Shown: positions 1-600 of the stretch, piece by piece | How the letters are laid out: each line of letters starts with the position of its first letter | Position numbering within the stretch: the stretch's first letter is position 1 | Source: Escherichia phage WPEC6 | Sequence record: PV763039.1 | DNA length: 64,000 nucleotides | Direction: 5' to 3' (one strand) | Notes under the pieces: generated by a model | What the model saw: only the letters and a program-made list of their open reading frames with translations | The model's database searches: none | What the model was told of the DNA's origin: nothing | Position numbers and translations under genes: made by a program

Positions 1-600
1 AGCACCTTCTCTTAAACGTAAATAAAATCAGAATAATCTTGATTTATTTTAGTTTTTATGTTAATAAACGTTTAAATAATAATCATTCTCATATAAATAA
101 TAGTCTGCTTGTCATGGGCGGCATCAGTTGACATTGTTCCGTCATATGATGAAGTTGCCAAGCCATTGATAAATAAGTGTTTGTGTGATTTATAATCAAG
201 TGGCCCACCTTGTCGCTACGTTGGCATGAGCCTTGCATAAGTCATTGAATACGAATGATAATTATTCTCATTCTCATGATATTTGGGAATTGTCGCTGCG
301 TGGACCTGACGGCCCGAAAATTCGCGTTAAGCACTTCTTACGTATGCGCCATGATTTTTGCCATATGATATTGATTCTATTAGATATTCTTGCCATGATT
401 GCCATGAAACAGGGTGTGTCGAAATAATCTCTCCCCGTAGATATTTTGGGTTACTTTTTATACAAGAGTGGGGTGTCAAAAATAATCGATATATATGGGA
501 TAATTGATAGGAATCCCCTATGGTAATTCGATTGTAATTGCCGAAGATTGATCGTATGATGTTGGTGATTGATGATTGCCATGAAAGATGGCTAACGATG
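1..600. repeat. repeat-rich apparently non-coding region (gatgattgccatgaaa x2, ttgtcgct[ag]cg x2, cattctcat copies)
   Basis: short direct repeats read in sequence; only weak ORF (233..427) without RBS. Confidence 0.4.

Follow-up and report, generated by a model that had tools for sequence, protein, structure and literature searches.

A probable direct terminal repeat with a conserved internal layout at the left end of Escherichia phage WPEC6

Introduction

The window analysed in this work is the whole of a 64,000-nucleotide (nt) stretch of DNA from Escherichia phage WPEC6 (sequence record PV763039.1), and its first 940 nt are occupied, in order, by a candidate direct terminal repeat (DTR), a non-coding leader, and the first left-end gene. 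The candidate DTR spans positions 1-328 or 1-329, the leader runs from 329/330 to 613, and the first gene starts with an ATG at 614. Comparison with phage records by BLAST places the window in Phapecoctavirus, that is, among the phAPEC8-like myophages of the Stephanstirmvirinae, whose genomes measure approximately 150 kb; positions 1-940 are found at 100% identity in WPEC1, WPEC2, and WPEC4, and at 95-98% identity in about 60 further Phapecoctavirus records. It is very probable that a phAPEC8-like linear genome has its physical left end at base 1 of the window, and that positions 1-328/329 are the left copy of its DTR, followed by the leader. DTRs of the Stephanstirmvirinae were already known, their lengths having been published, while the conserved internal layout described here was, as far as the searchable literature shows, previously undescribed.

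The cross-genus alignment to which we refer throughout comprises 10 genomes in four groups: Phapecoctavirus; phiWec179, phiWec188, and PsgM04F; Justusliebigvirus alia, Eryne, and PD114; and the Klebsiella phage phi1_175008. Genome-wide counts of motifs and repeats are counts within the 64-kb window.

Evidence for a direct terminal repeat

The identity of positions 1-328 as a packaging end is well supported. WPEC4 ends in 328 nt that are 100% identical to window positions 1-328, and an exact 329-nt repeat, which shares 96% identity with the DTR of the window, stands at each end of the Schickermooser record. The paper that describes Schickermooser identified a “terminal repeat of 328 bp” (PMC6563267). 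It is because of these end repeats, and of the published length, that 1-328/329 is taken as the left copy of the DTR and base 1 as the end of the DNA. Copies with the same boundaries are also present at both ends of WPEC1, WPEC2, BI-EHEC, and Mt1B1_P17, and the length of 328 or 329 nt carries a 1-nt ambiguity, since bases 329 and 1 are both A. The occurrence of one and the same sequence, in direct orientation, at both ends of a genome is seen here by way of the relatives WPEC4 and Schickermooser, and the boundaries are conserved in 10 genomes of four genera. A cos site of the lambda type is ruled out, the ends of the relatives carrying a 328-bp duplication. The DTR is present in one copy per junction in concatemers, and in two copies in packaged DNA.

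Record ends coincide with these same positions. Schickermooser, WPEC4, three NWU phages, BI-EHEC, and Ro121lw all start exactly at window base 1, while WPEC1, WPEC2, and Mt1B1_P17 end there in the reverse orientation. PD114 and a 149.5-kb IMG/VR contig (L088) have one of their ends at the homologous left site (AGCCTAC...), and the ends of the BME3 record match the homologous left and right boundaries. Scanning of IMG/VR with a loose pattern returned chiefly chance matches and two genuine ones, and a strict pattern returned three contigs only. The lengths predicted from the boundary motifs are 329 nt for Phapecoctavirus, 331-332 nt for the Wec group, 342-343 nt for the BME3 genus, and 344 nt for the Klebsiella phage; the BME3 paper reports a DTR of 342 bp, determined with PhageTerm (PMC12210895). 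As a separate observation, the BME3 record (PP239276) annotates “DTR-L” at 1086-1427, 73 nt inside the record end, and the sequence past this annotated repeat jumps to DNA of the right-end type, so that either the record or its annotation looks inconsistent.

In phAPEC8 (NC_020079), where the repeat is collapsed, window base 1 corresponds to position 6409, within a gene-free stretch of 1.5 kb (5513-7021) that reaches from a terminator to the first left-end gene, approximately 900 nt of it lying to the left of window base 1. A sequence-only reading of positions 1-600 had suggested that the region could extend beyond the left edge of the window, which holds for the concatemeric or collapsed form, as these 900 nt of phAPEC8 indicate, but not physically, that DNA being the right end of the genome.

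The boundaries and their shared motif

At each DTR boundary, in the four genera, GTTR^AGCA precedes a pyrimidine-rich run, and the two boundaries share one orientation. On the left, the terminus block AGCACCTTCTCTTAAACGTA (positions 1-20, plus strand) begins at the point where the cut in relatives reads ...GTTG^AGCA; records and contigs start or end at this point, and the block is conserved in all four genera of the 10-genome alignment. On the right, the block AAAATTCGCGTT(A)^AGCACTTCT (positions 316-337, plus strand) presents GTTR^AGCA as at the left cut. The boundary sequences are ...ATGTTG^AGCACCTTCTCTTAAACG on the left and ...TCGCGTTA^AGCACTTCTTACG on the right, within which GTTG^AGC and CGCGTT(A)^AGCA, respectively, are conserved in all of the aligned genomes. 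By a rough estimate, the chance of two independently defined boundaries matching at eight positions in register is about 1e-4. The right boundary is also a record end, since the BME3 and Mt1B1_P17 records start at the reverse complement of this point. The idea that the left and right boundary sequences co-vary within genera was considered and rejected, the score matrix presenting no diagonal excess.

Conserved elements inside the repeat

The first 110 nt of the DTR (positions 1-110) form an AT-rich terminal block, with 21% G+C as compared to 38.5% for the whole window. Within it lies a conserved decamer, ATCTTGATTT (positions 36-45, plus strand), which resembles a -35 element and is near-invariant in the 10-genome alignment: 7 of the 10 genomes have ATCTTGATTT itself, Schickermooser and Wec179 have TTCTTGATTT, and the AATCTTGATTT context is kept in the rest. 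No good -10 element follows it.

Two palindromic boxes inside the DTR resemble the enterobacterial Fur box, whose consensus is the 19-bp palindrome GATAATGATAATCATTATC. Box 1 (AATAATAATCATTCTCAT, positions 72-92) matches this consensus at 14 of 19 positions and is conserved in three of the four genera, and box 2 (positions 251-275) stands between TAAGTCATTGAAT and TGATATTTG in the most conserved core of the DTR (positions 238-285), which is found in all four genera. The match of box 2 at position 257, on the minus strand, reaches 16/19 and is the top match in the 64 kb; a further match, at 251, gives 14/19. Box 1 rises to 17/19 in Justusliebigvirus, as does box 2 in the Wec179 group, and in every genus only 0-0.7% of shuffled sequences reach the observed score. 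In the 6-12 kb flanks of seven genomes, all matches of at least 15/19 fall in the junction region, where the Fur matches sit at approximately -650 to -820, +73, and +257/268 relative to the left cut. By sequence, these boxes can be considered close matches to GATAATGATAATCATTATC. Promoters that overlap them are weak candidates only, with 8-9 of 12 hexamer positions matched. Separately, direct repeats around the core at 238-285 were examined as genus-specific elements and rejected, being significant in phAPEC8-like species only (p ~0.003).

The centre of the DTR is marked by TATCAATGGCTTG (positions 159-171, minus strand), which matches the IHF core consensus WATCAANNNNTTR and occupies one and the same alignment column in each of the 10 genomes, with variation at N positions only. 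The consensus has nine matches on the two strands of the 64-kb window. This core is displaced from the exact centre of the DTR by 0-4 nt, at about 158 bp from each boundary, and is accompanied by the A/T-rich 5' flank that is expected of an IHF site, again as a match in sequence.

The region left of the cut in relatives

In relatives of WPEC6, a conserved compound palindrome of approximately 180 nt is located 130-380 nt to the left of the left cut, which is outside the window and at the right end of the genome. It occupies positions 6030-6275 of phAPEC8, 1560-1900 of the PD114 sequence, and 1230-1490 of the Wec179 sequence, and its single-strand fold departs strongly from that of shuffled sequences (z = -8.6, -8.0, and -7.0, respectively), while the fold of the DTR is unremarkable (z = -1.2). 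Its inner hairpin, GCTAYGCCGGACACRTAGC, presents a compensatory change between phAPEC8 and Wec179. Further left, positions 5513-6030 of phAPEC8, past the last right-end terminator, form a gene-free and strongly A+C-rich stretch of about 500 nt, in which the AT skew reaches +0.55 and the GC skew -0.38. A third Fur-like box, TGCAATGATAACCATTATC, is located there, at 5724, and the Wec179 group has it unchanged.

The leader and the first gene

A number of candidate regulatory elements are found in the leader. The best conserved candidate sigma-70 promoter of the first operon, TTGTAA-17-TATGAT (positions 532-560, plus strand, 9/12), would start transcription near 567; its hexamers and spacing are common to Phapecoctavirus, the Wec179 group (in which the -10 hexamer is TAAGAT), and Justusliebigvirus, so that recognizable hexamers, a spacer of 16-18 nt, and conservation in relatives are all found together at this site. 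A second candidate, TTGCCA-18-AATAAT (positions 399-428, plus strand, 10/12), is restricted to phAPEC8-like species. Between them lies a conserved block, GGGGTGTCAAAAATAAT..TATATATGGGATAATTGATAGG (positions 470-511), near-invariant across genera and with no conserved RNA structure. The leader is followed by a ribosome-binding site (RBS), AGAGGAG (601-607), and by the first gene, of the phrog_2510 family (601-940, plus strand, with the RBS), over which homology to other phages stops at 940. This family is a multi-copy one, with 5-13 places per genome in this phage group by tblastn, and distant matches in many phages.

The repeats of the first 600 nt

The sequence-only reading had described positions 1-600 as rich in repeats, and this is borne out: the longest exact repeat is of 15 nt, whereas 1000 dinucleotide shuffles gave 9.3 nt on average and never more than 14, and 29 repeated 8-mer pairs are observed where shuffles gave 7.2 +/- 3.5. 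Among 212 overlapping 600-nt windows, positions 1-600 come first (k=8). All of the repeats that had been listed are present, but their coordinates were slightly off, and a 16-mer reported twice, gatgattgccatgaaa, is exact at 571-586 only, its first copy having a C at 394; it is the 15-mer ATGATTGCCATGAAA that is exact at both 395-409 and 572-586 (plus strand). With up to two mismatches, this 15-mer has four matches in 64 kb, with 0.47 expected. The second pair, TTGTCGCT[AG]CG (TTGTCGCTRCG), is located at 210-220 (TTGTCGCTACG) and 290-300 (TTGTCGCTGCG), both on the plus strand, with no other copies in the 64 kb, and the likeness of its two members stretches to 20 nt at 80%. Several copies had been claimed for “catatgat” and “cattctcat”, of which two each were found, CATATGAT at 143-150 and 362-369, and CATTCTCAT at 84-92 and 269-277; the latter fall inside the conserved palindromic boxes, the first in box 1 and the second in the core that holds box 2.

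In the four-genus alignment, conservation of the 15-mer pair and of the TTGTCGCTRCG pair is confined to phAPEC8-like species, and in Schickermooser the first copy of the 15-mer differs at two positions and is thus not exact. The two pairs, therefore, do not constitute the core functional elements. The first copy of the 15-mer belongs to a cluster of GCCATGA / TTGCCAT(AT)GA units (positions 348-409, plus strand) that is again found in phAPEC8-like species only; all four plus-strand GCCATGA copies of the 64 kb lie between 348 and 886, as do 5 of 11 TTGCCAT copies. The -35 hexamer of the candidate promoter at 399-428 lies inside this first copy, and the second copy would correspond to about +5 to +20 of the transcript predicted from the candidate at 532-560. 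Such a placement, over one candidate -35 element and just past the start of the other candidate, fits a possible lineage-specific operator or element of the 5' untranslated region (UTR). The TTGTCGCTRCG copies are likewise lineage-specific, and phAPEC8 and WPEC4, but not Schickermooser, have inverted copies of TTGTCGCTACG (CGTAGCGA and TAGCGACA) at 5-95 nt to the left of the left cut.

Two further observations concern these repeats. In Schickermooser, positions 390-407 differ from the window in that both tandem TTGCCATGA units have become TTGCCATTA, a concerted G-to-T change, the copy at 576 being unaltered. In addition, the unrelated repeat pairs at 75/254 and 395/572 have near-equal spacings of 179 and 177 nt, and this spacing is the top k-mer offset in positions 1-650 (14 counts, with a shuffle maximum of 13), although it is not kept in other genera.

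Rearranged blocks and neighbouring genes

Neither phAPEC8 nor Schickermooser is colinear with the window, in which joins lie at 940/941, 2283/2284, 60885/60886, and 62264. By homology, positions 1-940 run on at window position 60886 downward, and the right-end early region is found, reverse-complemented, at 941-2283. Blocks of 100% identity are shared by WPEC1, WPEC2, and WPEC4 in an order that differs between them, and each of the three breaks at 940, where the junction has no homology. These joins are probably assembly or scaffolding artefacts, real rearrangements being possible. Because of the join at 940, the first gene as it stands in the window (614-982) is chimeric at its 3' end; its intact form, 614-958, is found in Schickermooser.

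The element GGCACCATTGCCGCCCTAC, a perfect 7-bp hairpin (GGCGGCA / TGCCGCC), is found at window positions 985 (plus strand) and 2301, 3253, 4964, 61011, and 62239 (minus strand), and the breakpoints of the rearrangements lie 25-125 nt from its copies. In the phAPEC8 record, its counterparts are the “PHIRE promoter” features. It is situated just downstream of TTGACA-type promoters and before RBSs, a position that suggests a hairpin of the 5'-UTR rather than a promoter. At the other edge of the window, the N-terminal 274 amino acids of the large terminase subunit (phrog_979) are encoded at 63177-64000 (plus strand), the gene running off the right edge, and the gene that precedes it (62823-63167) matches the Rz-like spanin family and not a small terminase.

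Comparison with known systems

The DTR of WPEC6 does not differ in kind from those reported for the Stephanstirmvirinae Schickermooser and BME3, with which it shares both its boundaries and its place before the first left-end gene. The published reports on this subfamily give the length only; none of those consulted mentions the boundary motif, the central IHF core, the Fur-like boxes, or the adjacent palindrome.

The DTRs of phages T7 and T3 measure 160-230 bp, and for T7 a model of hairpin-primed duplication was reportedly put forward by Chung, Nardone and Hinkle in 1990. The present system has in common with this type a short and exact DTR (here of 328 bp), early promoters (here candidates) just inside the left end, and an inverted repeat left of the junction (here in relatives). 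In contrast to T7 and T3, it belongs to a myovirus with a genome of 150 kb, the same motif is directly oriented at both boundaries, and a site of the host-factor type stands at the DTR centre.

In the cos region of lambda, the IHF site I1 lies between terminase-binding R sites, and IHF and gpNu1 cooperatively bend the DNA. An IHF-type site between repeated boxes, near the terminase cuts, is a feature that WPEC6 would share with lambda, on the basis of a sequence match; unlike lambda, however, it has 328-bp duplications in place of 12-nt cohesive ends, and its boxes, which are palindromic and Fur-like, are separated by 179 nt where those of lambda stand tens of nt from each other; no small terminase subunit was identified. 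With regard to the enterobacterial Fur box, the likeness consists of 14-17 matches out of 19, of dyad symmetry, and of conservation in phages of E. coli and Klebsiella, whereas the location differs, a virulent phage here having the boxes in its terminal repeat and not over an iron-regulated promoter, with no overlapping promoter evident.

Alternative explanations

It is possible, if doubtful, that the region serves mainly as an early regulatory region controlled by host factors, according to iron status or growth state, its location in the DTR being incidental; this explanation is compatible with the DTR identity. In its favour are the Fur matches of 15-17/19 in four genera, which are confined to the junction region, the conserved IHF core, the conserved blocks, the promoter candidates at 399-428 and 532-560, and the weak leftward promoter candidates that lie over box 2 in 9 of the 10 genomes. 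However, no strong conserved sigma-70 promoter lies over the boxes, the DTR holds no gene that such a promoter could drive, and no report of Fur boxes in the termini of virulent phages was found in the searchable literature. A replication origin, with the AT-rich block unwinding next to an IHF site and the boxes serving as iterons for a phage initiator, is distinctly unlikely. The 21% G+C of positions 1-110, the IHF core, the threefold occurrence of the palindromic box in the 1.5-kb gene-free junction, and the strongly structured DNA close by in relatives would suit such an origin; nevertheless, DnaA boxes are absent, GATC occurs once as compared to 2.8 expected, the repeats are paired (with spacings of 80, 177, and 179 nt) at irregular and unconserved distances rather than forming an iteron array, and no adjacent initiator gene was identified. 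The proposal of the sequence-only reading that the region acts in regulation or in replication/packaging can thus be retained for packaging, since 1-328 is the probable DTR, and a regulatory role is plausible for 329-613, judging from its candidate elements, but replication finds no backing in DnaA boxes, GATC excess, or iterons.

The possibility that the region encodes a structured non-coding RNA is very unlikely. Long conserved non-coding blocks do exist, but Rfam searches with window positions 1-1200 and with the phAPEC8 junction gave nothing at E <= 1 save for a chance snoRNA match (E = 0.44), the leader at 329-613 has a consensus fold of only -2.3 kcal/mol (RNAalifold, seven genomes), and the z-score of the DTR is the unremarkable one cited above. 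Small proteins are extremely unlikely to be the product of this region. Open frames of 30-64 codons are present, among them the open reading frame (ORF) at 233-427 that the sequence-only reading had considered to be the only one, and which indeed exists (64 amino acids, TTG start) but is accompanied by other ORFs of at least 30 amino acids; WPEC4, in addition, annotates three small hypothetical coding sequences (CDSs) across the DTR and leader, at 255-368, 358-507, and 538-627. Yet no open frame in the DTR or leader is conserved across the aligned genera; frames differ between genera and even within a genus (Schickermooser as compared to the window, Wec179 as compared to Wec188), the alignment contains indels of 1-2 nt, the CDS at 255-368 would span the DTR boundary, and the curated phAPEC8 and Schickermooser records annotate no genes in this region. 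The small CDSs that some records place in this region, such as the three of WPEC4 (CDS001-003), are, by this comparison, probably over-calls. Finally, the likelihood that the repeats arose by chance and that the record start is arbitrary is close to nil: CATATGAT and CATTCTCAT, taken alone, are weak evidence, and to this extent chance could be invoked, but the shuffle statistics speak against it, as do record ends that coincide and are duplicated in the work of several groups and in two genera.

The proposed mechanism

A number of points weigh against the interpretation of positions 1-328/329 as a DTR cut at its two boundary motifs and organized by host factors. The right end of the WPEC6 genome lies beyond the 64 kb of the window, and the second copy of the DTR is seen in relatives; this caveat is tempered by WPEC4, which is identical over positions 1-940. 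A reference may have set the orientation of some records, in which case not all coincident starts would be independent. The likeness between the left and right boundaries is weak past about 14 nt (p = 0.003-0.16), the Fur-like boxes have no convincing sigma-70 promoter over them, and the distance between the two boxes varies by genus (179, 185, and 195 nt), on which grounds a helical phasing of the boxes was rejected. Lastly, GTTRAGCAC also occurs at window position 58958, and GTTGAGC four times in 12 kb of phAPEC8. The motif alone, therefore, cannot define the cuts, and additional context within the DTR is needed.

For the DTR reading, a sequence of events can be proposed, in which the roles of IHF, Fur, and the cut motif are those that we infer from sequence. 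Terminase would make sequence-directed cuts at both GTTR^AGCA boundaries, and their specificity would be increased by the context inside the DTR, namely the central IHF-type site flanked by the two Fur-like boxes. IHF could impose a U-turn at the DTR centre and thereby bring the two cut sites together, while the palindromic boxes may be bound by Fur or by a protein of similar specificity. The single copy at each junction would have to be duplicated, as in T7-type phages, and the palindrome left of the left cut is a candidate for the hairpin-primed synthesis that would duplicate the DTR. The leader, in turn, would carry one or more early promoters, for which 532-560 is the best conserved candidate. 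The fuller scheme that these steps suggest, of a nucleoprotein device assembled from host factors, where central IHF folds the repeat, Fur or a Fur-like protein occupies the three boxes, and the palindrome primes duplication, is speculative and unlikely to hold as a whole.

Implications

With regard to annotation, the start of the window is to be read as the true end of the genome, and positions 1-328 should be labelled as a terminal repeat. A 2026 review considers the mechanism employed by DTR phages to be less understood than the cos or headful mechanisms. The layout described here, with its boundary motif, central IHF-type site, Fur-like boxes, and palindrome, offers targets for mutation in coliphages that are widely isolated and relevant to therapy. 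If the proposed scheme is true, the boxes would be the first Fur boxes built into the genome end of a virulent phage, and these phages would provide a tractable new system in which to study the cutting and duplication of exact terminal repeats.

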